A stretch of DNA of 64,000 nucleotides from Minisyncoccota bacterium (GCA_041674285.1 JBAYVZ010000001.1:85732-149731); one strand, 5' to 3'; shown: positions 4,147 through 40,152, counted from the first letter of the stretch. The notes: generated from the sequence alone by a model not told the origin. Program-made: numbers and translations.

Positions 4147-4158
4147 TTTGTATGTATA

Positions 4159-4187
4159 TTGACAATACAAACGAAAAGGTATAAAAT
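4159..4187 (+). promoter_or_regulatory. sigma70-like promoter for fic (TTGACA-17nt-TAAAAT) embedded in an 8-bp inverted repeat GTTTGTAT/ATACAAAC
   Basis: TTGACA at 4159-4164 and TAAAAT at 4182-4187 with 17-nt spacer; inverted repeat 4147-4154/4165-4172 brackets the -35. Confidence 0.45.
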
Positions 4188-4202
4188 GTTAGTATCTATC
4201 GT

Positions 4203-5375
4203 ATGAATACAAACAATAAAAAAACATATTCAATAGGAACTTATAGACCAGAAAAGGATGGGCTTAAAACATTCTTGCCAAATGCTTTTCCTGGTGATTT
4301 TGAGTTTTCTGGGAAGCTTTATAAGAAACAAAGTGAAGCATCTCATTATTTAGGTAAACTTGATGGTATTACAAAACTTTTACCCGATAAAGACTTTTTC
4401 TTGTTAATGTTTATTAAGAAAGACGCTACTTATTCTAGCCAGATCGAAGGTACTCAAGCGACATTTCAGGATGCTGTAGCCGTAGGTGCTTCTTCAGAGT
4501 ATGGAGCTGTTGATGGTAGTGATGTTCATGATATTGTTTATTACATCAAAGCTGTTAATTATGCTATGAAAAGAATTGTAGATTTTCCTCTTTCATTACG
4601 ACTAGTTAGAGAAATTCATGAAAAATTAATGAAAGGTGCTCGCTCAACACAACATGCTTATCCTGGAGAGTTTAGAAATTCTCAGAATTGGATCGGCGCA
4701 CGACTTCCCAAGGATGCAAGTTTTATCCCACCAAATGTTTCTGATATGAAAAATGCATTAGATGAGCTTGAAAAATTTATTCATGCGAAAGATGATTTTC
4801 CAGCACTCATAAAAGCAGGTCTTTTACATGCTCAATTTGAAACCATACATCCATTTACTGATGGTAATGGTCGTACTGGTAGAATGTTGATAACTCTTTA
4901 TTTGCATAAAGCAGGACTTTTGGAATTACCTGTTTTATATCTTTCAAGTTACTTTAAAAAATATCAAAAACTTTATTATTCAAAATTGGCAAGTTATCAT
5001 GATGAAGAGAGTGATATTGAGGGTTGGCTTAATTTCTTTTTAGATGGGGTTGTAGATACAGCACAGTCTTCAATAGAAACATGCGAAAAGATTATTGCAC
5101 TTAGAGAAAAGGATCATGCAAAAATTCAGACACTTGGAGTCAAAACAGCATCTAAAACATTTGAGGTTTTGCAACAGTTATACAAGCAACCAATAGTGGG
5201 TATCGCGGACATAGAAAAATGGACAAATTATACACAGCCAGGTGCCTACAAGATGATTCAGAGATTGATTGATTTAGATATTTTAGAACCATTGGGGGAT
5301 GTAAAGTATGGCCAAAAATATGTTTATACAAAGTATTACAAGATATTCGATTCTGATTTTATAAATAAAAAATAA
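4203..5375 (+). CDS. fic: Fic/DOC family protein (AMPylase-type; N-terminal Fic/DUF4172-like domain, C-terminal wHTH)
   Basis: Canonical Fic motif HPFTDGNGRTGR; upstream inhibitory-helix-like motif SSQIEGT ((S/T)xxxE(G/N)); located between hsdR and hsdM. Confidence 0.9.
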   Translation: MNTNNKKTYSIGTYRPEKDGLKTFLPNAFPGDFEFSGKLYKKQSEASHYLGKLDGITKLLPDKDFFLLMFIKKDATYSSQIEGTQATFQDAVAVGASSEYGAVDGSDVHDIVYYIKAVNYAMKRIVDFPLSLRLVREIHEKLMKGARSTQHAYPGEFRNSQNWIGARLPKDASFIPPNVSDMKNALDELEKFIHAKDDFPALIKAGLLHAQFETIHPFTDGNGRTGRMLITLYLHKAGLLELPVLYLSSYFKKYQKLYYSKLASYHDEESDIEGWLNFFLDGVVDTAQSSIETCEKIIALREKDHAKIQTLGVKTASKTFEVLQQLYKQPIVGIADIEKWTNYTQPGAYKMIQRLIDLDILEPLGDVKYGQKYVYTKYYKIFDSDFINKK

Positions 5376-5376
5376 C

Positions 5377-6807
5377 ATGGCCATACAATCTATAATAAAA
5401 AATATTCAAGACATCATGCGCAAAGACGCGGGCGTAGATGGTGATGCACAACGCCTTTCTCAGCTCGTATGGCTTTTGTTCTTAAAAATTTTCGACGACA
5501 AGGAAAAGGAATACGAGCTCGTTGATACAAAATACATTTCTCCTATTCCAGAGGATCTTCGCTGGCGTAATTGGGCGAGTAATGCCGAAGGCATCACTGG
5601 CGATGAGATGCTAGATTTCATAAACAATAAACTTTTCAAGCAACTCAAGGATCTAAAATTCAATAGCAGTGATGATCCTCGAGGTATGATAGTCAAAGAG
5701 GTTTTTGAGGATACTTACAACTATATGAAGTCTGGCACCTTGATTCGTCAGGTAGTAAATAAAATAAATGAGATAGATTTCAATAGCAAGGATGACCGCC
5801 ATCATTTCAATGAGATATACGAACATTTATTAAAGCAGCTTCAAAATGCGGGCAACGCTGGTGAATATTACACTCCTCGTCCGCTGACAAATTTTATTGT
5901 AAATACCCTTGATCCAAAATTAGGTGAAGATATTCTTGATCCCGCATGTGGTACTGGCGGATTTCTAATCAGTGCACTAGAATACATTCGTAATAGTGGA
6001 GAAATCAAAACTAAAAAAGACGAGACTAAACTTCAAAACCAAATTCATGGTGTAGAACTCAAACCACTCCCACACTTACTCGCTATTACAAATATGATTC
6101 TTCATGGAGTAGAGATTCCACAGCAGATAAAGCGTGGGGACATGCTCTCGCATCCACTTCGTGAATATGGTCCGAAAGATCGCGTGGATATTATAATCGC
6201 AAATCCTCCCTTCGGTGGTAGCGTAAAAGATGGCACTGAGGCAAACTTCCCAGCAGATTTTCGCACAAAGGAAACAGCTGATCTTTTTCTTGTATTATTT
6301 ATGGCATTATTGAAGCCTGGTGGCCGAGTCGGTATTGTCCTCCCAGACGGCTCACTCTTTGGTGAAGGGGTAAAATCTCGCATTAAAGAAAAGCTCCTTG
6401 AAGACTGCAACCTTCACACTATCATCCGCCTACCAGCAGGAGTATTCCAACCATATGCAGGGGTGAATACAAATCTAGTATTCTTTACAAAGGGTCAGCC
6501 TACAAAGGATGTCTGGTATTACCAGATGCCTCTACCAGCAGGAATGAAGCAGTATACAAAGAATCGTGGCATCACAGATGCAGAATTTGAAACTGTGGCA
6601 AAATGGTTCAAGAATAAAAAGGCAGGTGACAATGCATGGAAAGTATCTATCGCTGACATAAAAGCCCGCAATTTTAATCTTGATTTCAAGAACCCAAAGG
6701 GTGGGGAAGTTGAGGAAGAATTGAGTTCAAAGGAGTTGATTAAGAGAATTCAATCTGTCGAAGGTCAAATTACAAATACTTTTAGTGATATTTTGAAGAA
6801 TATATGA
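5377..6807 (+). CDS. hsdM: type I restriction-modification N6-adenine DNA methyltransferase (HsdM)
   Basis: HsdM_N-like N-terminus, SAM motif DPACGTGGFL, catalytic NPPFGG; stop overlaps the next ORF start (ATGA). Confidence 0.9.
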   Translation: MAIQSIIKNIQDIMRKDAGVDGDAQRLSQLVWLLFLKIFDDKEKEYELVDTKYISPIPEDLRWRNWASNAEGITGDEMLDFINNKLFKQLKDLKFNSSDDPRGMIVKEVFEDTYNYMKSGTLIRQVVNKINEIDFNSKDDRHHFNEIYEHLLKQLQNAGNAGEYYTPRPLTNFIVNTLDPKLGEDILDPACGTGGFLISALEYIRNSGEIKTKKDETKLQNQIHGVELKPLPHLLAITNMILHGVEIPQQIKRGDMLSHPLREYGPKDRVDIIIANPPFGGSVKDGTEANFPADFRTKETADLFLVLFMALLKPGGRVGIVLPDGSLFGEGVKSRIKEKLLEDCNLHTIIRLPAGVFQPYAGVNTNLVFFTKGQPTKDVWYYQMPLPAGMKQYTKNRGITDAEFETVAKWFKNKKAGDNAWKVSIADIKARNFNLDFKNPKGGEVEEELSSKELIKRIQSVEGQITNTFSDILKNI

Positions 6808-8189
6808 AACTGCATTCAATTCAAATAAAAAATTATAGAAGCATAGAAGATATTTCTTTTGAGATTATTCAATTAGATGATAAAAGTTTTACATATGGTC
6901 TGATTGGAGTTAATGAGGCTGGTAAATCGAGCATACTTAAAGCATTGTCATTAAAAGATGGATTAGTTCAGACTCAACAAAAAGATTTTCGTGATAAATC
7001 AAAGCCTGTTGAGGTCATTTATTCTTATGAACTTACTATTGAAGAGAGTAATGAATGTAAATCTATTTTGGAGCCAATACCTGATAATTTAATTTTTACT
7101 GATATTTCACTGAAAGCATATTTTTTAATCCAAAATCCAACACAAATAAATCTAGAATTTGATTTATTAAATATAACAAACGAGGAAAAAGCAAAAATCC
7201 AAGAAAAATTACAACAGTTGTTCTTATCTAAAATTCATAAGTCTGTTTTTTGGACAGCGGAAGATAAGTATTTAATTTCACAGCCAATAGATCTTAACGC
7301 TTTTGCTAATTCACCTGAAAATGTTTCGATTCCACTTAAAAATTGTTTTTATCTTGCTGGTATTTTAAATATCCAAGATAGAATAAGTTCTGTTGGTGTT
7401 GATTCTACTGAAATTGAGCAGCTTCAAACTGAACTCGGGGAAAAAGTAACAGATCATATTAAAACTGTTTGGCCAAATCATCCTATAGATATAACTTTTT
7501 TAATAAATAATGGCCAAATTAATTTTCATATAAAAGATGAGGGTGTTTCTGGTAAGGCAAAAACAGCAGATCAGAGAAGTGATGGTTTTAAGCAATTCGT
7601 ATCTTTTCTTCTTACTGTTTCTGCTCAAAATAAAAATGATGAACTTGCTAACTCAATTTTATTGCTTGATGAGCCTGAAACTCATCTACACCCACAAGCA
7701 CAAGAATATTTACTAGGAGAATTCATAAAGATTTCTTTAAATAATAGAAATAATATTGTATTTTTTGCTACCCATTCAAATTACATGATTGATAAGGGAG
7801 ATTTAAGTAGAAACTATAGGATTAAAAAAGAAAGTGGTAAGACAGAAAAAAATAAATTTGATAAAAAAAATTCCACATATGCGAGTGTAACTTATGAAGT
7901 TTTTGACATTCCAAGCACTGATTATCATAATGAGATTTATGGAAAATTGCATGATAGATATCAAGATGCAGATATTTCTGATGAAAAAAGATCTGGAGTG
8001 TTAAATTTTGATACTGGATTTTTGTATTCCGAAAAAGGGATTAAAAAAGATAAACCATGGAAGGGAAATATTAACCAAGCAACCCTACCTACATATATTA
8101 GGAATTGCATTCACCATCCTGATAATGGAGATAAATATAAAGATGTGGAATTAAGAAAATCTATAGAGTTGCTACGTTCTTATTTATGA
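6804..8189 (+). CDS. ABC/AAA_15-type ATPase with C-terminal HEPN-like RNxxxH motif (PrrC/RloC-like candidate anticodon nuclease, or RloA-like restriction-linked ATPase)
   Basis: Walker A GVNEAGKSS; ABC-like D/H-loop LLLDEPETHLHPQAQ; C-terminal ~150-aa extension containing RNCIHH (R-N-x3-H) about 30 aa from the C-terminus; translationally coupled between hsdM and hsdS. Confidence 0.7.
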   Translation: MKLHSIQIKNYRSIEDISFEIIQLDDKSFTYGLIGVNEAGKSSILKALSLKDGLVQTQQKDFRDKSKPVEVIYSYELTIEESNECKSILEPIPDNLIFTDISLKAYFLIQNPTQINLEFDLLNITNEEKAKIQEKLQQLFLSKIHKSVFWTAEDKYLISQPIDLNAFANSPENVSIPLKNCFYLAGILNIQDRISSVGVDSTEIEQLQTELGEKVTDHIKTVWPNHPIDITFLINNGQINFHIKDEGVSGKAKTADQRSDGFKQFVSFLLTVSAQNKNDELANSILLLDEPETHLHPQAQEYLLGEFIKISLNNRNNIVFFATHSNYMIDKGDLSRNYRIKKESGKTEKNKFDKKNSTYASVTYEVFDIPSTDYHNEIYGKLHDRYQDADISDEKRSGVLNFDTGFLYSEKGIKKDKPWKGNINQATLPTYIRNCIHHPDNGDKYKDVELRKSIELLRSYL

Positions 8190-8599
8190 AAAATAAACAC
8201 CAAACCTCAAAAATAAATTTAATCAAAGATTTTAAAATTGCTTTAAAGGATATGGAGCCATATGTAAAAAATCCAGACTATCTTATTAAAGGTAGAGAGT
8301 TTTCTAATTTTTCGTTAAGACCTAGAGAGGCTTGGGCGAATTGGTTGCTCTGTGTTGTTTTGAGAAAACTACATGGTGATAATATAACTTTTGCAGAGGA
8401 TCCCAATGGTGATGGTTTTATTGTTGATAAAAATACAGAAGAAATGATACAAACAGAGCATGTTTCAGCGCTGGAAAACCCTCTTAATCCTCAGCCAAAA
8501 GGAGAAAATAGAATTATAGATGCAATCAATTTAAAAATTATAAAAGGACCCGCATACGCTACTGGTAAATGGTTGGTGGTGTTTTTTGATGGGGCTTAA
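8186..8599 (+). CDS. hypothetical protein (restriction-linked ORF); the frame stays open for 69 further codons after an in-frame TAA (to 8806)
   Basis: 137-aa ORF overlapping the ATPase stop. After TAA at 8597-8599 the same frame has no stop until 8807-8809 despite AT-rich sequence. Confidence 0.4.
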   Translation: MKNKHQTSKINLIKDFKIALKDMEPYVKNPDYLIKGREFSNFSLRPREAWANWLLCVVLRKLHGDNITFAEDPNGDGFIVDKNTEEMIQTEHVSALENPLNPQPKGENRIIDAINLKIIKGPAYATGKWLVVFFDGA

Positions 8600-8810
8600 G
8601 AATTTTTCAGAAATAAAATAAGAGAAAACATAAAAGGTAGACATAATTTTGATGCTGTTTATTGCGTTGGTCTATTGACTGTGGATATAAATAGATACTC
8701 TTATATAGTTTCAGAATTTAAGGACTCTAGTGGAGAAAAATCTATATCTTTTAAAATAGATATTAATAATGATTTTACAGATTGGAACATTAATCAAATT
8801 CTTCAATAAT

Positions 8811-9938
8811 ATGAAAAATAATTGGCAAACAAAAAAAGTCGGGGATTGTTTAGAAAAAATACCTAGTTTGGGTAGTGTATTTAGTAGTCAAAATTTACAA
8901 ATTGGAAATTTTCCAATTATAGATCAGGGTCAAGATTTCATCACTGGGTATACAAATGATAAATCTTTAGTTTTTTCAGATTGTTTACCAGTGATTATTT
9001 TTGGAGACCACACACGAGCTTTGAAATTTATTGATTTTCCTTTTGCTGTTGGGGCAGATGGAACTAAAATACTAAAACCAAAAGCTGAATTTGATCCAAG
9101 ATTTTTCTATTACATGTTGTTATCTTTGGATTTAGGAAGTCGTGGATATGCTCGTCATTTTAAATTGCTAAAAGAATCAGAAATTCCACTCCCACCTCTA
9201 AAAACCCAAAAGGAAATTGTTGCGAAGTTGGGTGAGAAGATGGGGAAGATTAAAGAAGCGAAAAAATTACGGGAAGTGGCTATTGCTGACACTGAAAAAA
9301 TCCTCTCCCAAACCCTCCGCGAAATTTTTGAAGAAGGAAAAGAGAAAGGGTGGGAGGAAGTTTTCTTGAGAGATGTTTCTGAGGTTGTTGGTGGTGGAAC
9401 TCCAAGTACTTCAGTAAAGGGTTATTGGGACCAAACTTACGCATGGGCAACACCTAAAGACTTAGGAAGACTAAATTCGGTTTATATAAATAAGACAGAC
9501 AAAACAATATCAGAATTAGGTTTAAAAAATTCTTCAGCAAAACTTCTGCCTATTGGGTCAATTGTTTTTTCGTCACGTGCGCCAATCGGGTATTTGGCTA
9601 TTAATACTGTTCCTATGGCTACTAATCAAGGTTGTAGAAATTTTGTGTGTTCAGATAAAATAATTAATAAATTTCTCTATTACTCTTTAGTTTTTAATAG
9701 AGAATATATTAAGTCCCTAGGCTCAGGGTCAACATTTGCTGAAATATCAGGTTCAAAGCTAAAAGAAATTATAATATTTATTCCATCTCTTTCTGAACAA
9801 AAGAAAATTGTTACTAGGCTTGATGCACTTTCGGAAAAGATTCGCAAGGCGGTTGAGCTTCAAAAATCCCAGCTAGAGGATTTGAAAAAACTAGAAAAAG
9901 CCTATTTACGAGAAGCATTTAATGGGGAATTAATTTAA
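8811..9938 (+). CDS. hsdS: type I restriction-modification specificity subunit (HsdS), two target-recognition domains
   Basis: Central and C-terminal conserved HsdS helices (LPPLKTQKEIVAKLGEKMGKIKEAKKLRE... and IPSLSEQKKIVTRLDALSEKIRKAVELQKSQLEDLKK); an alternative upstream start at 8769 is possible. Confidence 0.85.
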   Translation: MKNNWQTKKVGDCLEKIPSLGSVFSSQNLQIGNFPIIDQGQDFITGYTNDKSLVFSDCLPVIIFGDHTRALKFIDFPFAVGADGTKILKPKAEFDPRFFYYMLLSLDLGSRGYARHFKLLKESEIPLPPLKTQKEIVAKLGEKMGKIKEAKKLREVAIADTEKILSQTLREIFEEGKEKGWEEVFLRDVSEVVGGGTPSTSVKGYWDQTYAWATPKDLGRLNSVYINKTDKTISELGLKNSSAKLLPIGSIVFSSRAPIGYLAINTVPMATNQGCRNFVCSDKIINKFLYYSLVFNREYIKSLGSGSTFAEISGSKLKEIIIFIPSLSEQKKIVTRLDALSEKIRKAVELQKSQLEDLKKLEKAYLREAFNGELI

Positions 9939-9946
9939 AATAATTT

Positions 9947-10378
9947 ATGTCAAAAAATAAAATTTCAGGAGATATGGGTGAGCAGGAGATTGTAGATTTG
10001 ATCGCTTGTCCTAATTGCAAGAAGAAGTTGATGTTATTACCTAAAAACTACCCATTATTCGATGTGCAGTGTGAGGGGTGTAGTTTTCGTGCTCAGGTGA
10101 AGACAAACAACACAAAGCCAAAGTCTATAATCTTTGGAGCTGGCTGGGATATTATGGAAAAAGTTTTAAAATCTGGATACATGGTTCCACCGCTGATAAC
10201 AAATTTTAAGTGGAGTGATAAGGGTGTGGATCATCAAGAGATTCGATTTTATCCTTTTGTACCGAAGATAAATTTAAAGATGCATCAGCTTTCTGGGGAG
10301 GCAAGACGCGCAAATTATAAAATGTTTAATTACATAGGAATAGACAAGCTTCCTTATTTTGAATTGTTTAAAAAATAA
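9947..10378 (+). CDS. hypothetical zinc-ribbon protein, possibly restriction-endonuclease-like
   Basis: CPNC...CEGC four-Cys cluster; N-terminal GDMGEQEIVDLIA resembles the start of Mrr/PD-(D/E)xK-like domains; directly follows hsdS. Confidence 0.45.
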   Translation: MSKNKISGDMGEQEIVDLIACPNCKKKLMLLPKNYPLFDVQCEGCSFRAQVKTNNTKPKSIIFGAGWDIMEKVLKSGYMVPPLITNFKWSDKGVDHQEIRFYPFVPKINLKMHQLSGEARRANYKMFNYIGIDKLPYFELFKK

Positions 10379-10383
10379 AAATT

Positions 10384-10959
10384 ATGAAAAAAGATATTTT
10401 TGAGCAAATAACAGAAGATTATTTTAGAAAATTGGGTTATTTTACTGTCGGAAATGAAAGATATAAGCCTGCTGGGGTAGGAGTTAATTCTGATATTGAT
10501 GTTTTAGCTATGCATCCACTCAGTAATGATCTTGTGGTTGTAAGTTGTAAAGGGTGGCAATCTGGGATTAATATAAGAGAAATATTAGAAACTCTTAAAA
10601 CAAATCCAGATAAAATTATTCGTGGTGGGACCTTCAGAAAAAGACTCAGAGAAATAGCAGACGAAGACTCAGCCAAGGAGTTAAAAAAGAAAGTTTATTC
10701 TTTAACAGGCAAAGACTCCTTTACTTTTTATTTGTCAGTTGTTGATTATAAAGGCAATAAAGATGATTTTGAAAATTTCTATTTGTTCAAGAAAAACTTA
10801 CCTAATTGTGATATAAAAATTATCACCTTTAGGAATATGATTGAATTTCTAGATTTAAATAAAACCACAACTCCATCACATAGCGATATAATACACATAT
10901 TGCAGTTATTAAAAGCAGCGAAAGGTGAAATTATTTTTAAAGAAATAATACAGCCATGA
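10384..10959 (+). CDS. Mrr-cat-like restriction endonuclease domain protein (PD-(D/E)xK fold)
   Basis: FEQITEDYFRKLGYFTV...GVNSDIDVLAMHP...DLVVVSCKGW follows the Mrr_cat pattern (FE..LV..LL..GY.V..GDGGID..A..(V/I)QCK), here with a (S)CK variant. Confidence 0.5.
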   Translation: MKKDIFEQITEDYFRKLGYFTVGNERYKPAGVGVNSDIDVLAMHPLSNDLVVVSCKGWQSGINIREILETLKTNPDKIIRGGTFRKRLREIADEDSAKELKKKVYSLTGKDSFTFYLSVVDYKGNKDDFENFYLFKKNLPNCDIKIITFRNMIEFLDLNKTTTPSHSDIIHILQLLKAAKGEIIFKEIIQP

Positions 10960-23694: not shown

Positions 23695-23737
23695 TTGTTT
23701 GCACTCATTAATTTTTTATTTTATAATTTATTCATAA

Positions 23738-26700
23738 TGAAAAACATATTGCATTTCGCAATAGTGTTTGTATTCATAACTATTTTTAATATAGGAATAT
23801 TTCCTAGTTTTGCTTTTGCAGATACTGTCGTAGTAGGAGATATAAATGAAGATACTGTGTGGAGTTACGGAGACGGACCTTATATCCTGCAAGGTAATGT
23901 GTATGTGGATAGTGGAGTAAATTTAATTATCGAGAGCGGTACGATTGTAAAATTTGAGTTAGGATCTAGCCTCATTATCCAAGGCAATGTAGATATGCGT
24001 GGGTCTGAGGGTGATGAGATTTATTTTACTTCTATTTTAGATGATAGTATCGGTGGAGATACAAATTTTGATGAGGACGCCACCTCTCCTAGTCTTGGTG
24101 ATTGGAGGTTTATATTATTTGATTCTGGGTCCGTTTCTGGCATTTTAAATAATGTAATTTCACGGTACTCAGAGCAGGGCCTCGTTGTTTTTGATGCTTA
24201 TCTGAGTGTAGATGGTTTTACGTCAGATCAGGATATATATTTTTTAAATTCCAACGGAAGTCATTTATCCAGGATAAATATACCCAGTATGTCATTTTTT
24301 GATCATAGTAGCGCCTCCATCTCCGACAGTACCATCTCTGGTCCAGACAATACACCTATCTTGGTCCTTTATGAGGGGAATACTGTAAATATATTAAATA
24401 CTACGATATCTTGTATTTCTTTTTGCGGGAATGTAGTTAGTGTTTATAATTCATCAGTTTTGAATATAGAATCATCTGGTATATCTAGCGATTCCGGTGG
24501 TGTTTATGTTTTTGATTCTACTTTAAATGTCACAGATTCAGTTATTGATAATAGGAATAATGGGATATCTATATATGATTCATCTTTGTCTATATCAGAT
24601 TCTACTATCAAGAATTCTCAAAATTTTGGTATCGGTGTATATAATTTTTCTTTACAAAATATAGAGATTACAAATAATGAGATAAAAAATAATGGCATAG
24701 GGATAGCTTCATATGGAGAAGCGTTTTCAGTTCATGAAAATAGTATCCATGGGAATATTGTTGGTGTATCCAATGAAGCTATTTATATGGGGGACCTAAT
24801 TATGGACTCAAATTGGTGGGGGAGCAAAACGGGCCCATATCATGACACTCTGAATATCTACGGATTGGGTGATAGTGCCACTGACGGAGTATCCTACTAT
24901 CCTTGGCTACCTTATGACCCACTCAGTAGCGAGATGTCCAACGTGCTATTTATTCCTGGTTTTCAAGGTAGCAGATTGTATAAACAAAAAACATTGCCAA
25001 TCATTGGTAATGTGGAAGATAAACTCTGGGAGCCGAATACCAATAGTGATATCACAGATATGATGATGGATAATTTTGGCATTAGCCTAGATGAAAATAT
25101 CTATACTAGAGATATTGTAGATAAAAAGAGTGCTCTATTTTTTACTAGCGATATCATCTATGAATCTTTTATGAATGATATGGAAGCTCTAGTTAGTTCA
25201 AATACTATGGCGGATTGGGCGGCGACTCCTTATGACTGGAGGTATGACCCTATGTATGTAGTAGAACATGGTAGCGTGGATATAAATGGAAATATTTTTT
25301 ATGAAAATGAATTATTTGGATCCGAAGATTCATATATAGTAAAACAGGTAGAGAGCCTGATTGGTACATCAAAAAGTGGGAGGATCACACTAGTAGCTCA
25401 TTCAAATGGAGGCCTGGTTTTAAAAGCTCTAATGGTAAAGCTGGAGCAAATGAAAGCTGATGGTCTGAATGATTATGTGGATTATATAGATAAAGTTATC
25501 ATGGTCGCTACGCCACAGGTCGGTACACCCAAAGCTGTAGCTTCTATCCTGCATGGCTATGACCAGGAATTGTATTCCGGTGTGATTATGAAGCAATCGG
25601 TAGCTCGCAATTTTGCGATTAGGTTACCTGGGGCTTATGGATTGCTCCCGACTTCAAAATATTTTTATAACGTAGTGGATTCGCCAGTTGTCTTTGATCA
25701 GAGTTTAAATAAGATAAATAATTTTTATAAGATTTTTGGAGAAAAAATATCTAATTATGAAGATTTTGTAGATTTCTTATTAGCAAAAAAGAAAGACCGT
25801 ACGACTCCAGCTGTCTCCATGCTCGAAACACCAGCGATATTATTCCCAGGGATTTTTAATGATTCGGTAGATATTCACGAACAGCTTGATAATTATACTT
25901 TCCCAAGTAAAACAAAAGTCTACCAGCTCGCAGGTTGGGGCTTGCCGACATTGAAGGCTGTGCGATATTTCTCTCGAGCTGACTGCATACCTATCTCTAT
26001 TTTTAGCAAAAAATGCAAGATAGAAAATAATCTAGACGTAGAGCCTGTATTTACTGATGATGGGGACGAGACCGTAGTAACGCCTAGTGCTAATTATATT
26101 TCAGGCAATAATTATTATTTAAATTTATATAAATATAATAAAGATATGGGTTATGAGAATGAAGAAGTTTTTGATCACGCTCGTATACTTGACATTCTTT
26201 ATACAAGATCATGGATTATAAATATTTTAAGAAATAATTCTGTATTACCAGATTATGTGACTAAGACAAAACCTCCAAGTAATCAAAATTTAGTTATGTA
26301 TATACATACAACACCAGGTATGGACAAGAACGTATCGATTACAGACAAGGATGGCAACAATATGGGTATCAGGCTAGGTGTACCGTCAGACCCAGAAACT
26401 ACAGATTTTATACCGTATATCCAAGAGATTCCCGGAGGGTTTTATTCTATGATGGGGAGGAATCATTATGTATATCTGAGCTATTCAGGATCCGATAGTT
26501 ATAGGGTGAATATCACCCCAGCCGAGAATTCGGGTGGGGATACGAGCTCTGGTAGTGTCACTATCCGCCAAGATGTAGTCATTGGTGATACGATAGAGAG
26601 CTCCGTGACTGTGCCTAGCATCCCTGTATCTCCTGATACTATTATTTCCACGGACATAGGTCCAGATGGGTCTATAGACGATGTGGAGGTGGACAATGAA

Positions 26701-27144
26701 GGTGATGGCAATGTGGACTATATAGTGCCATCTATCCCCACAGAGGATCCACAGTCCCCAGTACAAGATGATGACAATATGAACTCCGAGATTATTCCAG
26801 ATCTAGAGATTTCAAAATCTTATGGATCTAATGCTGTTGTCCCCGATGAGAGAGGTGTCGTCGTGATAAGGGAAGGTATTGAAGTTAGATTAAATAAGAC
26901 AGATACTCAGATAGAAGGCGATCCAGTTTTGATACCTAATACTAAAATAGAAATTATAGATTCCGATATAGGTAATAAAGAGGTTGCGTCTGTGTTTGAT
27001 GAATACATCTATTCTGGGTCCAATCTGTCTGCATCTGTCCTGGAGTCTGAGATAGAAATCCCTTGGTTAAAAATTTTAAATACAATTCTGATTGCTATTA
27101 TTATATCTCTTGTATTGTATAAATTTATGTATAAGGTAAAATAA
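23738..27144 (+). CDS. large cell-surface protein: signal peptide, right-handed beta-helix repeats, alpha/beta-hydrolase (lipase/esterase-like GxSxG) domain, C-terminal TM anchor
   Basis: Signal peptide MKNILHFAIVFVFITIFNIGIFPSFAFA; NosD/pectate-lyase-like repeats (NNGISIYDSSLSISDSTIKNSQNFGIGVYNF); LVAHSNGG nucleophile elbow; C-terminal TM ILNTILIAIIISLVLY; start set at ATG 23738. Confidence 0.75.
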
Positions 27145-27658: not shown

Positions 27659-28156
27659 ATGAGCATTGAAACAGAAATATTGTCCTACTTGGCAAATCAA
27701 AAAAGAGAAAAGCCACTAAAATACAAAGGTCTTAGGGTTGGCCTGTTCGGCTTGCCAGATTTTGAACATTATAAATACCAGACAATGGCTGCAAGATTAT
27801 CCGGTCTCAAAACAAAGGGGTATATAGATGAGAAAAATGGAGCATACTTTATTACAAAAAAGGGTAGAGATTTTCTTTTAAAAAGTAAATCTATCCTTCA
27901 AAAATTTTCGACAAATAAAACGAGTACAGATCCGAAGGATCTTTTGATTGTATATGACATACCCGAGGGTAATAAGAAGCAGAGAGATTGGTTTCGTCGG
28001 CAGTTGGTATCTATGCATTTTGTGATGATACAGAGGAGTGTCTGGGTAGGTCCAGCTCCATTATCCGATGAATTTCTTGCATATTTAAAATCTTTAAAAC
28101 TTAATGATAATTTTAAAACATTCAGATTAGCAAAGGGGTATGATACTCGTAAGTAA
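27659..28156 (+). CDS. winged-helix + Cas2-like (VapD/Cas2-fold) domain protein, orphan
   Basis: C-terminal half LLIVYDIPEGNKKQRDWFRRQLVSMHFVMIQRSVWVG...FKTFRL parallels the Cas2 N-terminal core (LVLV.YDI..D..RRR....L...G.R.Q.SVF). N-terminal ~75 aa is wHTH-like; no CRISPR array nearby. Confidence 0.5.
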   Translation: MSIETEILSYLANQKREKPLKYKGLRVGLFGLPDFEHYKYQTMAARLSGLKTKGYIDEKNGAYFITKKGRDFLLKSKSILQKFSTNKTSTDPKDLLIVYDIPEGNKKQRDWFRRQLVSMHFVMIQRSVWVGPAPLSDEFLAYLKSLKLNDNFKTFRLAKGYDTRK

Positions 28157-34416: not shown

Positions 34417-34950
34417 ATGTTTGCAAATCCACAAAGTAATGTAGCTCAATTTAATCTACGCGAGGGTATGCGTGTCGCTGATTTTGGTGCAGGGAGTGGT
34501 GGGTATGTACGTGCTATCTCTGATCGTGTCGGTCATACTGGCAAGGTCTATGCCATCGATGTACAGAACTCTCTATTCCTAAAACTAACAGAAGACGTAA
34601 AAAAATATCCACTCCAAAATGTAGAGTGTATTCTCGGTGATGTAGAGAAAAAGGGTGGGTCAAAACTCGCAGATAAATCCATGGATGCAATCATAGCTTC
34701 CAATGTATTATTCCAGATAGAGGATAAATTAGGCCTGATAGATGAGATTAAAAGAGTTTTAAAGCCAAAAGGGCGAGTACTGGTCATAGATTGGTCAGAT
34801 TCTTTTGGTGGTATGGGTCCAGCACCTATGTACGTAGTGCCCAAGATAAAAGCAGAACATCTATTTATCGATAGAGGTTTTAGAGTTATCGAAAATATAG
34901 GAGCGGGGAGTCATCATTATGGTATAATATTTATATATGAGTCCCGTTAG
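34417..34950 (+). CDS. class I SAM-dependent methyltransferase
   Basis: Motif I VADFGAGSGGY, motif post-I/II AIDV..., LKPKGRVLVIDW. Confidence 0.8.
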   Translation: MFANPQSNVAQFNLREGMRVADFGAGSGGYVRAISDRVGHTGKVYAIDVQNSLFLKLTEDVKKYPLQNVECILGDVEKKGGSKLADKSMDAIIASNVLFQIEDKLGLIDEIKRVLKPKGRVLVIDWSDSFGGMGPAPMYVVPKIKAEHLFIDRGFRVIENIGAGSHHYGIIFIYESR

Positions 34951-35066
34951 AAACCGCGATCGCAATTTAAATAAAAATATTATTATAAAAATTATGCAAT
35001 ATATAAAAATTAACAATCTAATTAATCAGAATCACGACTTGATCGCGATCTGTTTCTAACGGGATG
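34937..35066 (+). promoter_or_regulatory. structured leader element copy 3 (40-codon uORF MSPVRNRDRN... + 21-bp interrupted stem CCCGTTAGAAAC-CGCGATCGC / GCGATCGCG-AGAT-GTTTCTAACGGG)
   Basis: TATAAT 34923-34928 is 8 nt upstream of uORF ATG 34937; uORF stop TAA 35057-35059 lies inside the 3' arm; main ATG 35064. Confidence 0.6.
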
Positions 35067-36368
35067 AGTAATTTTCAAACAATTTTTACTGCTATTTTTT
35101 TAGCCTTCTTTGTTTTTGGTGTTTTGGTTTTTGCTGGGCTAATACCTCTAGGAAAATCTTCAAATTCAAATTCTCCTGTGGGTAATGTGGTGATATGGGG
35201 GACATTTCCTTCTTTGTCTATGTCAAAGATTATTGAAGAAATAAATTCTTCAAATCAAGACCTCATTATTAAGTACGCACAAAAGCCAAAGGGCACATAC
35301 CAACAGGATATATTAGAAGCTATGGCTTCTAGTTCTGGGCCAGACTTGTTTTTTGTAACTCCAGATATGGTGATAAAAAACAAAAAATTTATTTATCCTA
35401 TGCCTTATTCAAATTATCCAGAAAAGTCATTTAACTCAACCTTTATTGAAGGTTCTAACGTTTTTTTGGCAAAAGAAGGAGTGCTGGCCTTTCCTGTAGT
35501 TGCTGATCCTCTGGTTCTTTATTACAACAAAGAATTGCTTACAAATGCAGGCATTGCAAAACCTCCGGTTTATTGGGATGAATTATTTGAGATGAATTCG
35601 TTACTGACAAGAAAGAATAATGACGGTGTGGTATCTCAATCCATGATTGCATTGGGTGGTTTTGATAATATTAATAATGCAAAAGATATAATGACTCTAC
35701 TCTTGATTGGTAGTGGCGATTCTATTATCCAAAACGATCGCTCTGATGGGACTATGTCTGTGGTAGTGAATGACAAGACTCCGTTCACATTGTCGCCAGT
35801 AGAGACAGCCATAGGATTCTTTAATGAATTTTCAAATGTGAATAACCAGGCTTATTCATGGAATAGATCTCTCCCGAATTCAAAAGATATGTTTACAAAC
35901 GGTAAATTGGCTTTTTATATTGGTCGCGCGAGTGAACTTTTTGAGATTGAGTCCATAAATCCAAATCTTAGTTTTGATGTAACAAATGTTCTCCAGACCC
36001 GCAGTACAAATCTAAAGAGGACAAATGGTCCAATCTACGCATTGGCTACTAGTAGTCGTTCTACAAATGTGGCTGGTTCATTGGGTGTAGCTGGCCTGAT
36101 GTCTAGTCCTGATATTGCAAGGGAGATATCTTCGGCATTGTCTATCCCACCAGCACAGAAGGATTTATTGAATGAAAATCCGACAGATCCATATATATAT
36201 ACTTTCTATAAATCAGCAATCTATCTGTACCCATGGTTGGATCCAGATACAAAGATCACAGATACAATATTTAGGGATCTATATCAGAATCTAATATCAA
36301 ATAAACTAAGTTCTGCCGATGCTGTGAATAAACTTCAGAGTCAGTTGGACTTATTAATTAAAAAATAA
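35064..36368 (+). CDS. membrane-anchored extracellular solute-binding protein (ABC-type SBP family-1-like)
   Basis: N-terminal TM anchor; SBP-like features (VVIWGTFPS..., GPDLFFVTPD, GKLAFYIG); no permease genes adjacent. Confidence 0.55.
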   Translation: MSNFQTIFTAIFLAFFVFGVLVFAGLIPLGKSSNSNSPVGNVVIWGTFPSLSMSKIIEEINSSNQDLIIKYAQKPKGTYQQDILEAMASSSGPDLFFVTPDMVIKNKKFIYPMPYSNYPEKSFNSTFIEGSNVFLAKEGVLAFPVVADPLVLYYNKELLTNAGIAKPPVYWDELFEMNSLLTRKNNDGVVSQSMIALGGFDNINNAKDIMTLLLIGSGDSIIQNDRSDGTMSVVVNDKTPFTLSPVETAIGFFNEFSNVNNQAYSWNRSLPNSKDMFTNGKLAFYIGRASELFEIESINPNLSFDVTNVLQTRSTNLKRTNGPIYALATSSRSTNVAGSLGVAGLMSSPDIAREISSALSIPPAQKDLLNENPTDPYIYTFYKSAIYLYPWLDPDTKITDTIFRDLYQNLISNKLSSADAVNKLQSQLDLLIKK

Positions 36369-36371
36369 TAT

Positions 36372-37346
36372 ATGAAAAAAATACTTGCAATATTTATATT
36401 GGTAGCAACGCTAGCACCTACGATGTCGTTTGCTGGCGGTTTTGATGAGCCACCTTTTGCAGATATATACAACCCTGATTCAAAATGCTGGAGAGGTGTG
36501 ATGCATCTAAAGGGGCCTAGCGAGCAATTGCTACGTCAAAATATGCCTGTTAAGATGCGAGAGTCCTATGCGACTGCAGTGGGTGTGGATATTTCTGCTG
36601 TACCTTCATTTGCTCCTTTTATAATTGAAACATCTAATACTTCTCTCTATGATTCTGAAAAGAAAGAATATCACTTCTATGCAGCTGCAGTGTATCCACT
36701 ACCAGGTGTAGATGATGACTGTATAAAAGCGGTCCCACCATCAAATCCAAATACTACTGTGACTACTGAGGGTAAGGACATAATAGGAAAATCTACAGTT
36801 GGCCTGGCTGCTGCTAGAGCTGCTGTGGGTGGTGCTGGGTCTATCGGTCTCGGTGGTATCGCAGGTGTTGTGGCAGGGTCAAATCCTAATCCTGATACTC
36901 CAGGGGATATAAAGGGTACTCCTTTATACTCAGGTTCAACATCTGGTAATAGTGAGATTAATTATAATCCTGGTCCGAGTGGTCTAGCTGTGGACTGTAA
37001 CCGAGGAGAACCTGTAGTTCAGTATAGTACAGGCAAAAATGGTCAGAGAATAACCGAAGTGGTATTTCAGAATAATTGTGGTTTTGATGATTTGATGACT
37101 CTAATCAACAAGATTATTAATTTTCTTTTGTTTGTCATTGCTACACCCCTAGTCGCTATCGGTGTGTGTTATGCGGGATTCCTGTATCTTACATCTGGTG
37201 GTAGCTCTGAGAAGACTGGTCAGGCAAAAAGTATACTCATGAATCTAGTTATCGGTTATATAGTCGCATTGCTAGCTTGGGTAGTAGTGAAAACGATAAT
37301 GGTATCGTTAGGGTTCAATGCTACTGGTATATTCCTAGAGATTTAA
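36372..37346 (+). CDS. secreted VirB2/TrbC-pilin-like protein with long Gly-rich N-terminal domain (paralog 1 of 5)
   Basis: Signal peptide; C-terminal two-TM core PLVAIGVCYAGFLYLTSGGSSEKTGQAKSILMNLVIGYIVALLAWVVVK. Confidence 0.5.
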   Translation: MKKILAIFILVATLAPTMSFAGGFDEPPFADIYNPDSKCWRGVMHLKGPSEQLLRQNMPVKMRESYATAVGVDISAVPSFAPFIIETSNTSLYDSEKKEYHFYAAAVYPLPGVDDDCIKAVPPSNPNTTVTTEGKDIIGKSTVGLAAARAAVGGAGSIGLGGIAGVVAGSNPNPDTPGDIKGTPLYSGSTSGNSEINYNPGPSGLAVDCNRGEPVVQYSTGKNGQRITEVVFQNNCGFDDLMTLINKIINFLLFVIATPLVAIGVCYAGFLYLTSGGSSEKTGQAKSILMNLVIGYIVALLAWVVVKTIMVSLGFNATGIFLEI

Positions 37347-37383
37347 TGTTGTGTTTAATTATAATTAATTTTAAAATAATAAG

Positions 37384-37788
37384 ATGAATAAAATTACGTT
37401 TTTCATGTTACGAAATAAAAAGATTTTGACTGTCGCGTATCTCCTTGTTTTAATGATTTTGCCTTTTGCTTTCTCTCATGCAGTTGATCCTGCTGGTGTG
37501 AATCTGGATGTGAGGATAAAGAACCCTCTGGATAGTAGTATAAATACACTCCCAAAGTTCATAGAAGAGGCTTTGAAAATTGTACTGCAGATCGGTGTGC
37601 CGGTGGTGACATTGGCTATCATATACAGTGGTTTTCTTTTTGTAATGGCAAGAGGGAATAGTGAAAAGCTAGGCGAGGCCAAGAATACACTGATGTACAC
37701 ACTCATAGGAGCGGCATTGCTACTAGGATCATGGGTCATAGCGCAGGCTATACAAGGTACAATATCAGACATTAAAAGCACAACATAA
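37384..37788 (+). CDS. VirB2/TrbC-pilin-like small two-TM protein (paralog 2)
   Basis: Signal peptide; core VPVVTLAIIYSGFLFVMARGNSEKLGEAKNTLMYTLIGAALLLGSWVIAQAI. Confidence 0.5.
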   Translation: MNKITFFMLRNKKILTVAYLLVLMILPFAFSHAVDPAGVNLDVRIKNPLDSSINTLPKFIEEALKIVLQIGVPVVTLAIIYSGFLFVMARGNSEKLGEAKNTLMYTLIGAALLLGSWVIAQAIQGTISDIKSTT

Positions 37789-37803
37789 TTAAAATAAAAA
37801 TAT

Positions 37804-38103
37804 ATGCAATGTTCAAATTCAATTAAAAGTATTACAGATTTTATAAATCTAGGGAGCTGTATATTGATAAAGTCTGTGGTTCCTCTACTATTCTCTATCG
37901 CTACTGTTGGTTTTATATGGGGTATCATCCAGTATTTTATAAATCCTGATAATGAAGAGAAGCGTAGTGCAGGTAAATCTTATATGATATGGGGATTGAT
38001 TGGGTTATTCGTGATGGTATCTATCTGGGGGCTAGTAGGGGTATTCTCTTCTACTTTAGGGATCAATAATAAGCTGATCGTTCCTCAGGTATATACAAAA
38101 TAA
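37804..38103 (+). CDS. VirB2/TrbC-pilin-like small two-TM protein (paralog 3)
   Basis: Core VPLLFSIATVGFIWGIIQYFINPDNEEKRSAGKSYMIWGLIGLFVMVSIWGLVGVF. Confidence 0.5.
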   Translation: MQCSNSIKSITDFINLGSCILIKSVVPLLFSIATVGFIWGIIQYFINPDNEEKRSAGKSYMIWGLIGLFVMVSIWGLVGVFSSTLGINNKLIVPQVYTK

Positions 38104-38189
38104 AAACTTGCGTATTGTATATCATTTTGTGATATAATATAAGTATCATTATTAGGGTTTAGTCGTTAATTATTATTTAAAAATAAAAC

Positions 38190-38555
38190 ATGAAAAAAAT
38201 TATTTCATCAAGTTTGGTTTTGTCACTGCTCCCTGTTTTTGTTTCTGCTGCGTCTGTTGATGCTTATTCAATAATCGCAACAATTGGAAGACTTTTGAAT
38301 TTGGTTATCCCTGTTCTTATTGCGTTTGCTGTAGTTTACTTTATCTGGGGAGTTATCCAGTACACAATCTCAGGTAATGACGAGGCAAAAGAAAAGGCTC
38401 GTACAAGTATCATCCAAGGTCTTATCGGTCTATTCGTGATCGTAGCTTTCTGGGGTATCATCGGTATCATCACAAATACATTTGGAGTCGGATCAACTAG
38501 CTTCTCAGCTAACAACCAGCTTCCTTGTATCCCAACATCTGGAAATCCTTGCTAA
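38190..38555 (+). CDS. VirB2/TrbC-pilin-like small two-TM protein (paralog 4)
   Basis: Signal peptide; core IPVLIAFAVVYFIWGVIQYTISGNDEAKEKARTSIIQGLIGLFVIVAFWGIIGII. Confidence 0.5.
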   Translation: MKKIISSSLVLSLLPVFVSAASVDAYSIIATIGRLLNLVIPVLIAFAVVYFIWGVIQYTISGNDEAKEKARTSIIQGLIGLFVIVAFWGIIGIITNTFGVGSTSFSANNQLPCIPTSGNPC

Positions 38556-38567
38556 TAAAATAAATAT

Positions 38568-39413
38568 ATGTTTTTTGAACTTATACCAGTAGCAGAGGCG
38601 AGTGTGGCGACATTGATGCAGAGCATTAATAGGGTTATTATTAACCCTATTATAATACTGATGTTCTCTGCTGCCATAGTTTACTTTCTGTATGGCGTAG
38701 TTCAGTATCTCATTTCTCCGGATGACGAGGAGTTGAGGACTACCAGTAAATCCCATATGCTCTATGGGATTATTGGTATTTTTATCATGATGTCGGTTTT
38801 TGGTATTATGCGTGTGATTCTAAACTCACTGGGAGAGAATCATATAAAGATTACAGACACAGGAGAAGTAAATATCGCACCGAGGGACGGCTCTGGTTTT
38901 AACAATATTGGTGACTCGATAATAGATAAATCAATATTTACTCCGGTAAATAATAAATTTGAAAAACCAGTAGATACCTCTTGGGTAGATACAAACATAA
39001 CAACAAAGAAAGACCTAAATAAGACCATATATATAGATCCAAACTCTGTTTCAACAAAATCTACTTCAGGTACCTCAAGCGGTGTCGGAACAGGTGGTTC
39101 TACTGGTGGTCTGCCTGAGATCAAGAACGAGAGTAATCTGCCATCTTTAGATGCAGGTGTCGCAAAGATTGTTCAAGATATGAAAGATGCCTACAAGACA
39201 GATAGCAAGAATTACAAGGTCGTAGCTTCTGGGTTATCTAACTCTGAACAATCTGCAAAAGAACAAACTATCATGAATGCTCGTATTATGGTTGCCAAAG
39301 AAAAAAATGTGACCAATCTGGACAGTGTTTATAATGGAGGTATCCTGTATGAGAAAAATTGGAAAGTCGGTGAGACCTACCACTACTGGGTAGCTATGAG
39401 CTCTCCTAAATAA
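38568..39413 (+). CDS. VirB2/TrbC-pilin-like two-TM protein with ~190-aa C-terminal extracellular extension (paralog 5)
   Basis: Core NPIIILMFSAAIVYFLYGVVQYLISPDDEELRTTSKSHMLYGIIGIFIMMSVFGIM; Gly/Ser/Thr linker SGTSSGVGTGGSTGG. Confidence 0.5.
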   Translation: MFFELIPVAEASVATLMQSINRVIINPIIILMFSAAIVYFLYGVVQYLISPDDEELRTTSKSHMLYGIIGIFIMMSVFGIMRVILNSLGENHIKITDTGEVNIAPRDGSGFNNIGDSIIDKSIFTPVNNKFEKPVDTSWVDTNITTKKDLNKTIYIDPNSVSTKSTSGTSSGVGTGGSTGGLPEIKNESNLPSLDAGVAKIVQDMKDAYKTDSKNYKVVASGLSNSEQSAKEQTIMNARIMVAKEKNVTNLDSVYNGGILYEKNWKVGETYHYWVAMSSPK

Positions 39414-39423
39414 CCTAACTTAA

Positions 39424-39450
39424 AAACCACCGAAAGGTGGTTTTTATTTT
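39424..39450 (+). terminator. rho-independent terminator
   Basis: AAAAACCACC-GAAA-GGTGGTTTTT. Confidence 0.8.
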
Positions 39451-39489: not shown

Positions 39490-39518
39490 TTGACAAAAAA
39501 GTTGAAAAAGAGTATAAT
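39490..39518 (+). promoter_or_regulatory. consensus sigma70 promoter TTGACA-17-TATAAT
   Basis: TTGACA 39490-39495, TATAAT 39513-39518, exactly 17-nt spacer; upstream of the 39628 gene. Confidence 0.6.
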
Positions 39519-39627
39519 ATGTAAATAAGGTTAGTTCTTTGAAATGGCAGGGATTTTGGTTTGTTTACTAGAGCGGATATATAATTATCACTTCTGGCAA
39601 ACAAACCAATATAAAACATACAACAAC

Positions 39628-40152
39628 ATGAAAAAGCCAATGCTTTTAGTAGTTGCAATCATCATCATGATGTTAGCGACAACGGTTAACTCTACCGCAC
39701 AACAAAAAATGAGTAAAAATAGTAGTATCGCAGGTGGGAGTGTTGATTCTTTGGTTCTCGTTCAAAAAATCATTGATGATGCCATTACTGCTCGAGAAGA
39801 GGTTTCTGGGATGGTAATGATCGTGGAGCAATTTATTAGCTTAGAACAACATGAGTTTGACAGTCTATATCTTGAATTCCGGAAATTGAATCCGGATTCC
39901 GCGGTGAGTATTTATGAGGGTGCCTCGGTTTCGAAAGAACAAGAATTGGAATTCGAGAATTACATGGCGATGTCGGAAGAGAGATCACATCTTATTATAA
40001 GTCAAATGGAAAAGGTCTCATCAGAAAAAGAGATTTTACTTGACCGGTTCATGAATCTACAGACTAAATATCTTGAACTAACAGATTTGCTCCTCAAAAA
40101 CTACGACATTTTGGTCCGCCTTCTTAGATGTAAAGAAGAAAACAAAAATTAA
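39628..40152 (+). CDS. secreted coiled-coil protein, hypothetical
   Basis: Signal peptide MKKPMLLVVAIIIMMLATTVNSTAQ (start chosen at internal ATG 39628). Confidence 0.45.
   Translation: MKKPMLLVVAIIIMMLATTVNSTAQQKMSKNSSIAGGSVDSLVLVQKIIDDAITAREEVSGMVMIVEQFISLEQHEFDSLYLEFRKLNPDSAVSIYEGASVSKEQELEFENYMAMSEERSHLIISQMEKVSSEKEILLDRFMNLQTKYLELTDLLLKNYDILVRLLRCKEENKN

Follow-up and report, generated by a model that had tools for sequence, protein, structure and literature searches.

A conserved array of five type IV secretion pilin-family genes behind an orphan solute-binding-fold gene in a Paceibacteria bacterium

The 64,000-nucleotide (nt) stretch of Minisyncoccota bacterium DNA analysed here (GCA_041674285.1 JBAYVZ010000001.1:85732-149731; the window) carries five consecutive plus-strand open reading frames (ORFs) that span positions 36372-39413 exactly. 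Their products, named p1 to p5 in gene order (positions 1-5), are, as judged from their sequences, members of a pilin family of type IV secretion systems (T4SSs; VirB2-like, PF18895). We think it rather likely that they are subunits of a surface structure assembled by a T4SS whose machinery is encoded elsewhere. The host is a Paceibacteria bacterium (Patescibacteria, or Candidate Phyla Radiation), and the array is a further example of a kind already published in Patescibacteria. What is new here is the positional orthology of the genes across species, their linkage to a solute-binding protein (SBP) gene, a promoter within the array and a module borne by two of the pilins.

A preliminary description of this DNA had reported five same-strand genes of 324, 134, 99, 121 and 281 amino acids (aa) that share a two-helix core with a charged loop, mostly carry signal peptides, and have a long N-terminal extension in one product and a long C-terminal one in another. 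The ORFs agree with it exactly, and each of these traits was recovered. Hydropathy and alignment give all five a common core of about 90 residues, consisting of a hydrophobic helix, a short charged loop and a second hydrophobic helix, and the AlphaFold2 model of p4, built from 30 homologues, is a helix-loop-helix (helices 25-60 and 64-98; predicted local distance difference test score, pLDDT, 80-87 in the core). By pairwise BLASTP the ORFs fall into two groups, p1+p2 (3e-12; 41% identity between p2 and the p1 core) and p3+p4+p5 (p3-p4 3e-20, p3-p5 5e-22, p4-p5 2e-16; 28-45% identity, 43% for p5 against p3). p1 and p2 match p3-p5 less strongly (about 1e-3 to 4e-5), p2 with p5 not significantly (0.22). 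On these alignments the paralogy of the five exceeds chance, with pairwise identities inside the array of 16-45%. A profile of the five cores matched no further ORF anywhere in the window.

Outside the core the proteins differ. Signal peptides with an AxA-type site are predicted from the sequences of p1, p2 (ending PFAFSHA before VD) and p4 (ending VFVSAA before SVD), and none is predicted in p3 or p5. For p2 the gene caller favours an alternative start, the ATG at 37405, which shortens the protein to 127 aa. Truncation does not explain the short N-terminus of p5, since the motif MxFxIIPVAEA is kept in its orthologues. The extensions are residues 22-236 of p1 (12% Gly) and 96-281 of p5. p3 has a conserved N-terminal Cys pair (C3, C19), the number of N-side cysteines being even in 58/58 position-3 orthologues with a median of two; in p4 the signal peptide and hairpin core are followed by a C-terminal tail with two invariant cysteines (C113, C121).

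Membership of PF18895 (T4SS_pilin) is established at the level of sequence profiles. The family cut-off of 26.6 bits is exceeded by p1-p4, and p5 falls 1.2 bits short of it; the precomputed Pfam annotation concurs, listing p5 as 'faint'. PF18895 is also matched by all 32 position-1 and position-2 orthologue cores and, among the matches listed for 435 p4 homologues, by all 120, some of which are named 'pilin' by NCBI. The preliminary description had read the proteins as VirB2/TrbC-pilin-like and had called for a search with T4SS pilin profiles. That search was positive through PF18895, which upholds the reading for p1-p4, whereas PF04956 (TrbC/VirB2; cut-off 27.9 bits) is reached only below its cut-off, by p1 (17.0 bits) and by p2, the most TrbC-like of the five (23.1 bits over profile positions 8-97 of 98). 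In the orthologous position-1 and position-2 cores PF04956 matches recur at E <= 0.01 (27/32; best 1.5e-7). Canonical VirB2/TrbC membership is therefore not established by these profiles, yet the resemblance they detect is real. The Mycoplasma pilin-like family NF045849, from integrative and conjugative elements (cut-off 40 bits), gives p1-p5 scores of 21.6, 26.4, 26.9, 35.3 and 23.3 bits, all under its cut-off.

Charge and cysteine placement in 290 orthologues suggest how the hairpin lies in the membrane. The inter-helix loop has a mean of 2.4-4.0 K+R residues, compared with 0.5-1.7 in the flanking 15 residues, and cysteines are scarce inside the hairpin (median 0) and cluster on its N or C side, mostly in even numbers. 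Two considerations, the positive-inside rule and the expected location of disulfide-type Cys pairs outside the cytoplasm, lead us to infer that the proteins sit in the cytoplasmic membrane with both termini on its outer side and the K/R-rich loop in the cytoplasm. A termini-out, loop-in arrangement is the known topology of VirB2 and TraA. In this arrangement the Cys pairs, among them those of p1 at 39/117 and 209/236, would be extracellular, as would the p1 and p5 modules.

The array belongs to a conserved block. Scanning one genome per species with the p4-family alignment gave 72 loci, in Paceibacteria and Nomurabacteria-type metagenome-assembled genomes (MAGs); the locus of a near-identical MAG, 'Candidatus Paceibacterota bacterium Gw_Eff_bin_515', is referred to as L011. 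Every locus with enough upstream DNA has the order gyrA, S-adenosylmethionine (SAM)-dependent methyltransferase (175 aa), SBP_bac_1 protein (431-445 aa), pilins. In the 68 non-redundant relatives' loci with the SBP gene upstream, there are five pilins in 57, four in 6 and six in 4, the remaining one having two SBP-like ORF fragments; with the window added and duplicate contigs dropped, the counts are 58, 6 and 4 loci with five, four and six pilins, respectively. Within the 58 five-pilin loci the best match in the other genomes was the pilin at the same position in 58/58 cases, for each of the five positions. Each position also has its own hallmarks: N-terminal extensions and signal peptides at positions 1 and 2, the N-terminal Cys pair at position 3, a signal peptide and the invariant C-terminal tail IPCIPxPGxxC at position 4, and the start MxFxIIPVAEA with C-terminal extensions of up to about 660 aa at position 5. 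Lengths range across species from 119 to 702 aa at position 1 and from 99 to 774 aa at position 5.

Compared with the window, the five pilins have median identities of 49-59%, the SBP 51% and GyrA 86%. By these values the clade is fairly narrow, and pilins and SBP evolve fast but in step; the idea that p4 is the most conserved member was rejected, all five sharing the same 49-59% range. Against the near-identical MAG, the ratio of nonsynonymous to synonymous substitution rates (dN/dS) is 0.05-0.14 for whole pilin genes and 0-0.03 for the hairpin cores of p1 and p5, and no value exceeds 0.42. Every pilin gene is thus under purifying selection. The preliminary description had spoken of a diversified toolkit of paralogues; diverged they are, but the divergence is not recent, the five being ancient lineages with 58/58 positional orthologues. 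On this comparative evidence the array is a fixed set of five ancient paralogues rather than a freely varying cassette. Positional orthology together with purifying selection argues for five non-redundant subunits, against the interchangeable variants considered for such arrays by Quinonero-Coronel et al. 2025 (PMC12102498), and agrees with the individual essentiality of six Saccharibacteria paralogues (Wang et al. 2023; PMC10633639). As a separate observation, many TPA_asm MAGs titled 'uncultured Candidatus Saccharibacteria bacterium' (L013, L016-L018, L025-L028 and others) carry the same gyrA-methyltransferase-SBP-pilin block with a p4 about 60% identical to that of the Paceibacteria/Nomurabacteria MAGs, and their organism labels look wrong.

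The preliminary description had placed the array directly downstream of a solute-binding protein gene, and this proved to be a constant neighbour. The SBP stop codon lies 3 nt before p1, the median gap to pilin 1 is 2 nt in the 56 relatives measured, and the gene immediately precedes the pilins in all 68 non-redundant loci from relatives with sufficient upstream sequence. The protein has a conserved N-terminal membrane anchor (MSNFQTIFTAIFLAFFVFGVLVFAG). Neither a permease nor an ATP-binding cassette (ABC) ATPase gene (BPD_transp, ABC_tran) was found near it, in the window or in the relatives' flanks, and an SBP-dependent ABC importer was set aside as an explanation of the whole block for lack of these genes. 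The main text of PMC12102498 does not contain the words 'solute' or 'gyrA' and does not mention this linkage; the T4SS cluster of S. epibionticum ML1 has no SBP gene (PMC10633639 supplement). The SBP may be a co-expressed surface partner of the pilins or simply an operon neighbour.

Wherever a locus extends far enough upstream, the methyltransferase gene separates gyrA from the SBP gene, and in most relatives its 3' end runs 8 nt into the SBP gene (median gap -8 nt). In the window the two genes are 113 nt apart, and the spacer (34941-35063) is closed by a long inverted repeat in which CCCGTTAGAAAC..GCGATCGC pairs with GCGATC..GTTTCTAACGGG. The repeat takes in the stop codon of the methyltransferase gene and extends just as far as the start codon of the SBP gene (fold -35.2 kcal/mol, z = -5.8). 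It could be an inserted element or a structure occluding the SBP start, and it is probably what the preliminary description meant by a 'leader' controlling the SBP gene.

Within the array the p3-p4 spacer is the sole long junction (median 122 nt, against 2-26 nt elsewhere; 86 nt in the window). It contains an extended -10 element 52 nt upstream of the p4 ATG, and TGnTAnAAT is found in the same spacer in 45/56 relatives. Since this element sits in the p3-p4 spacer, p4 and p5 probably have their own promoter, internal to a longer unit that begins before the SBP or methyltransferase gene. A terminator-like hairpin follows p5 and closes the transcription unit (Table 1).

In at least 34 of the 56 relatives pilin gene 4 also has a 5' leader hairpin, which lies downstream of the extended -10 element and has an invariant GTCG in its loop (for example L052 9934-9977, L029 9923-9966 and L061 9924-9967). 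Its 8-bp helix shows compensatory changes in 7 pairs; the score was reached by 0/500 shuffles, and slid controls scored much lower. The motif ATTATTAT(A/T)AG(GTCGTT) often lies 3' of it. We regard the hairpin as a candidate cis-regulatory RNA element. It is missing from the shortened spacers of the window and its two closest relatives, and positions 38104-38189 of the window keep only ...TTTAGTCGTTAA... A search of Rfam found only two tRNAs in the window and nothing in one relative's pilin block, the leader hairpin being without a match.

The extensions of p1 and p5 contain copies of a module of about 94 aa, defined by p1 residues 24-117 (FxxxPF..CW..TEY..YP..LYD..YYxWxDxRAP..G..DC) and modelled as an alpha/beta domain with a pLDDT of 85.7. 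The diverged p5 copy (207-281) matches iterated profiles of the module at 1.8e-4 and 1.9e-29. In other species the position-5 C-terminal extension holds one to five tandem copies, and a copy at the position-1 N-terminus occurs only in the window, L011 and L012 among the 58 loci compared. The module has no Pfam or PDB sequence match. A single-sequence HMMER scan of 1.84 billion representatives returned only five true relatives, all of them pilins, and three further matches (P0123, P0125 and P0126) were rejected as repeat-protein noise; a word-prefiltered search with the module alone or with a 25-sequence module alignment found no homologues, probably on account of the prefilter. Relative to L011 (7406-7687), the synonymous divergence (dS) of the p1 module is 1.09, against 0.19 for the p1 hairpin core and 0.1-0.5 for neighbouring genes, a local mosaic that suggests exchange of the module by recombination. 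The module is always on the terminus predicted to lie outside the cell; a displayed binding role is plausible.

Table 1. Features of the pilin block and its flanks, in window coordinates.
Feature	Position	Strand	Details
SAM-dependent methyltransferase	34417..34950	+	177 aa; Pfam Methyltransf_11/25/31
SBP_bac_1 solute-binding-fold protein	35064..36368	+	434 aa; PF01547 57.3 bits, PF13416 50.1 bits
p1, position-1 pilin-like protein	36372..37346	+	324 aa; PF18895 40.6 bits, TrbC 17 bits
p1 signal peptide			residues 1-21
p1 module	36441-36722		residues 24-117; followed by a Gly/Ala/Pro-rich linker
p1 hairpin core	37080-37343		residues ~237-324
p2, position-2 pilin-like protein	37384..37788	+	134 aa; PF18895 37.0 bits
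p3, position-3 pilin-like protein	37804..38103	+	99 aa; PF18895 44.3 bits; without signal peptide
Extended -10 element	38130..38138	+	TGATATAAT; in the p3-p4 spacer
p4, position-4 pilin-like protein	38190..38555	+	121 aa; PF18895 42.0 bits, NF045849 35.3 bits
p5, position-5 pilin-like protein	38568..39413	+	281 aa; PF18895 25.4 bits
p5 N-terminus and hairpin core			MFFELIPVAEA; core residues 1-95, followed by a linker
p5 diverged module copy	39186-39410		residues 207-281
Intrinsic-terminator-like hairpin	39421..39446	+	11-bp stem, then T run; after p5
Sigma-70-type promoter	39490-39518		perfect TTGACA-17-TATAAT; precedes the next gene after p5

Our proposal draws on the sequence, on established knowledge of VirB2, TraA and TrbC, and on published work in Patescibacteria. 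p1-p5 would insert in the cytoplasmic membrane with the loop inside and the termini and modules outside. Elsewhere in the genome would be encoded a T4SS of VirB4 type and of the monoderm (MPF-FATA-like) kind, which would extract the subunits from the membrane and assemble them into a surface filament or a channel extension for host-cell contact. Given a fixed set of five distinct orthologous lineages, the paralogues would be non-redundant subunits of one structure, not alternative versions of one pilin. p1 and p5 would display swappable outer modules, p4 and p5 would be transcribed separately, and the orphan SBP-fold protein would be a probable co-expressed surface partner. Taken as a whole, a five-subunit heteromeric surface apparatus with an anchored SBP-fold partner and swappable modules on two subunits is a picture we put forward very tentatively, as an unlikely one in its entirety.

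As the preliminary description had noted, the window holds no VirB4, VirB6 or other T4SS family, whether its ORFs are scanned or the precomputed Pfam annotation of its called genes is consulted, and none was found in the 10 kb beyond either window end. With these flanks the analysis covered 84 kb of the 200.7-kb metagenome contig (ENA ERZ27247358 k141_666987) to which the window belongs. That description would have favoured an unrelated family of small membrane proteins in the event of no profile similarity to VirB2/TrbC and no T4SS machinery in the genome. Profile similarity exists, and four relatives with the same block (RAAC4_OD1_1, GW2011_GWD2_36_14, GW2011_GWE2_34_25 and GCA_003446925), which are all the block-bearing genomes present in the PMC12102498 data set, are VirB4-positive in its Table S1. 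The machinery thus exists elsewhere in the relatives' genomes. Every large Walker-A ORF in the vicinity of the block in the 72 relatives was identified as ClpB, IF-2, ATP synthase, AAA_13/15 or similar.

Several points weigh against T4SS-assembled subunits. VirB4 is attested in relatives and, for this genome, is inferred from them; T4SS genes were not found in some 46 kb of DNA upstream and 35 kb downstream of the array, and in all 72 loci the 10 kb on either side of the block is free of VirB4-like ATPase genes. p3-p5 have no PF04956 match at E <= 1, p1 and p2 stay under its cut-off, and p3 and p5 are without signal peptides. Sequence profiles of the p4 family and of the position-1/2 cores reached no solved pilin in the PDB; what they did match, such as CD20 and chemokine receptors, we regard as spurious hits to membrane proteins. 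Fold searches with the p4 hairpin model are uninformative, since thousands of chains contain matching helical hairpins. A solute-binding-fold partner is not something that T4SS biology would lead one to expect. Finally, no such pilus has been seen in any Patescibacteria, for which reviews give only the potential.

The constancy of the SBP gene invites a different explanation, in which the block encodes a membrane complex centred on the SBP and independent of any T4SS, the five two-helix proteins (10 helices) forming the membrane part of an unconventional uptake or signalling system and the likeness to pilins being ancestral only. Such a complex would account for the linkage of SBP and pilins in 68/68 loci at a median gap of 2 nt, for an SBP that is an orphan with no permease or ABC ATPase found nearby, and for a block that never adjoins T4SS genes in 72 loci; a few orthologue cores also give weak matches to transporter families (MatE 11/32, DctQ 2/32). 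These matches, however, are far outweighed by PF18895 (32/32 cores) and TrbC (27/32), and no energising component accompanies the complex. Cleavable signal peptides are predicted in 3/5 proteins, and the large extracellular modules and predicted Cys-bonded tails suit displayed subunits better than a permease. Moreover, in Saccharibacteria a homologous array lies inside a T4SS locus that has no SBP gene. We therefore consider an SBP-centred complex improbable. Peptides of a bacteriocin-like or holin-like kind, secreted, small and hydrophobic, were an alternative in the preliminary description, and the array products are indeed small and hydrophobic, some with leaders. Beyond that we found nothing in favour of this idea, which is by far the least credible of those considered: the surroundings yielded no double-glycine leader, C39 peptidase/ABC exporter, immunity gene or lysis gene; the block is flanked by gyrA and housekeeping genes, with vertical conservation across 72 species; and the PF18895 match is specific.

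If the proteins are T4SS pilins, they might still be a repertoire of mutually replaceable major pilins, of which one or a few are in use at any time, serving host range or antigenic variation. This has been suggested for the VirB2 arrays of Bartonella and Anaplasma and floated for Patescibacteria in PMC12102498. Besides that published interpretation, it can draw on the low identity inside the array (16-45%), on outer extensions whose lengths differ widely between species, and on the excess of dS in the p1 module over the p1 core, with the recombination this suggests. The differences, however, are confined to appended modules and spare the pilin cores. Each position has strict orthologues (58/58) and gene number is near-constant; hallmarks such as the p3 Cys pair, the p4 C-terminal Cys pair and the p5 MxFxIIPVAEA start are position-specific; purifying selection acts throughout, with dN/dS never above 0.42; and each of the six Saccharibacteria paralogues is essential. 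A variation repertoire is on these grounds doubtful, and we prefer non-redundant subunits of one T4SS-assembled structure.

Among known systems the closest are the other pilin arrays of Patescibacteria. Quinonero-Coronel et al. 2025 (PMC12102498) described 441 VirB2 arrays of 2-11 genes in 383 Patescibacteria assemblies, most abundant in Microgenomatia and Saccharimonadia, with identities of 25% on average and 54% at most; about 40% of the pilin genes were away from virB4. In Southlakia epibionticum ML1, SEML1_0014-0019 are six PF18895 genes, each scored essential (Wang et al. 2023; PMC10633639). A 2025 review describes the Patescibacteria systems as unique among monoderms in their potential for building conjugative pili. 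Our array resembles the published ones in phylum, PF18895 membership, tandem same-strand arrangement, low identity (16-45% compared with a mean of 25%) and gene number (five compared with 2-11), and its five consecutive genes satisfy the array definition used in PMC12102498 (at least two pilin-profile genes in tandem or one gene apart). It differs in lying outside and away from a T4SS locus, next to gyrA and always behind an orphan SBP_bac_1 gene, and in its five positional lineages, its alpha/beta module on two members and its Paceibacteria host.

Canonical conjugative T4SS pili are built of a single VirB2-type pilin, with VirB5 at the tip. With canonical VirB2/TrbC proteins (the Agrobacterium T-pilus, TrbC of RP4) the array proteins share small size, a leader in 3/5, two helices with a charged loop, the predicted termini-out, loop-in topology and a weak but recurrent profile similarity. 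They differ in their sub-cut-off scores, monoderm host and lack of adjacent virB genes, in being five paralogues instead of one major pilin, in the globular domains fused to two of them and in showing no evidence for cyclisation or other processing. We found no solute-binding-fold partner of canonical T4SS pili described in the T4SS literature consulted. Mbov_0395 and MMCAP2_0565 (NF045849) belong to T4SSs of wall-less monoderms and have an 80-residue two-helix profile to which all five proteins align nearly full length; the Mycoplasma genes, however, are single-copy and part of a mobile element, whereas the array occupies a chromosomal housekeeping locus. An analogy, with no claim of homology, may be drawn to the major and minor pilins of type IV pili and type II secretion (FimU-PilVWXE, GspGHIJK), which also form fixed sets of about five diverged paralogues per operon, with a separately promoted member and extra outer domains on some. 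Their fold and machinery are unrelated, with a single N-terminal helix and a prepilin-peptidase site that is absent here.

The array lies among housekeeping genes (gyrA, ftsZ, ftsA, priA, ATP synthase and ribosomal proteins), together with a NUDIX protein gene and tRNAs. Directly after the pilin terminator, positions 39490-40152 hold a 202-aa ORF with a signal-peptide-like internal start (MKKPMLLVVAIIIMMLATTVNS, ATG at 39628); no Pfam family matches it, and neither L011 nor any of the relatives' 72 loci has a counterpart. About 9 kb upstream of the array, 23695-27144 encode a 1149-aa protein with an LCAT-like (PF02450) lipase/acyltransferase domain in its middle third, the giant surface lipase-like protein of the preliminary description, for which no conserved link to the pilin block was found. 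A 165-aa protein (27659-28156) combines a winged helix with a PaaX_M/Cas2-like domain, and no CRISPR array or other cas gene was seen nearby. At 1795-10959 there is a defence-type island with type I restriction-modification genes (HsdR, HsdM, HsdS), split by a Fic/DOC gene and an AAA_15/AAA_21 (AbiEii-like) ATPase gene and followed by DpnI-like and Mrr-like nucleases. A closely related MAG (L006) has a DUF8370/DUF8371 gene in place of the AAA_15 gene and different genes downstream, indicating that the island varies between strains.

The role of T4SSs in Patescibacteria is an open question, the system being essential in the one species tested yet lacking a relaxase or coupling protein, and pilin arrays are a trait that distinguishes it from other monoderm systems. 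The locus described here does not change the kind of system concerned, and its new details will be of moderate interest to specialists. It does provide a clean comparative data set, with five lineages, a constant SBP neighbour, an internal promoter and a domain without a Pfam or PDB sequence match, and the p1 and p5 modules and the SBP are concrete candidates for structural and genetic study. The comparative data argue for non-redundant parts of one structure over a variation cassette. If the heteromeric apparatus were real, it would be a pilus or conduit composed of major and minor subunits and equipped for ligand capture, with which these bacteria would attach to their hosts or draw nutrients from them.

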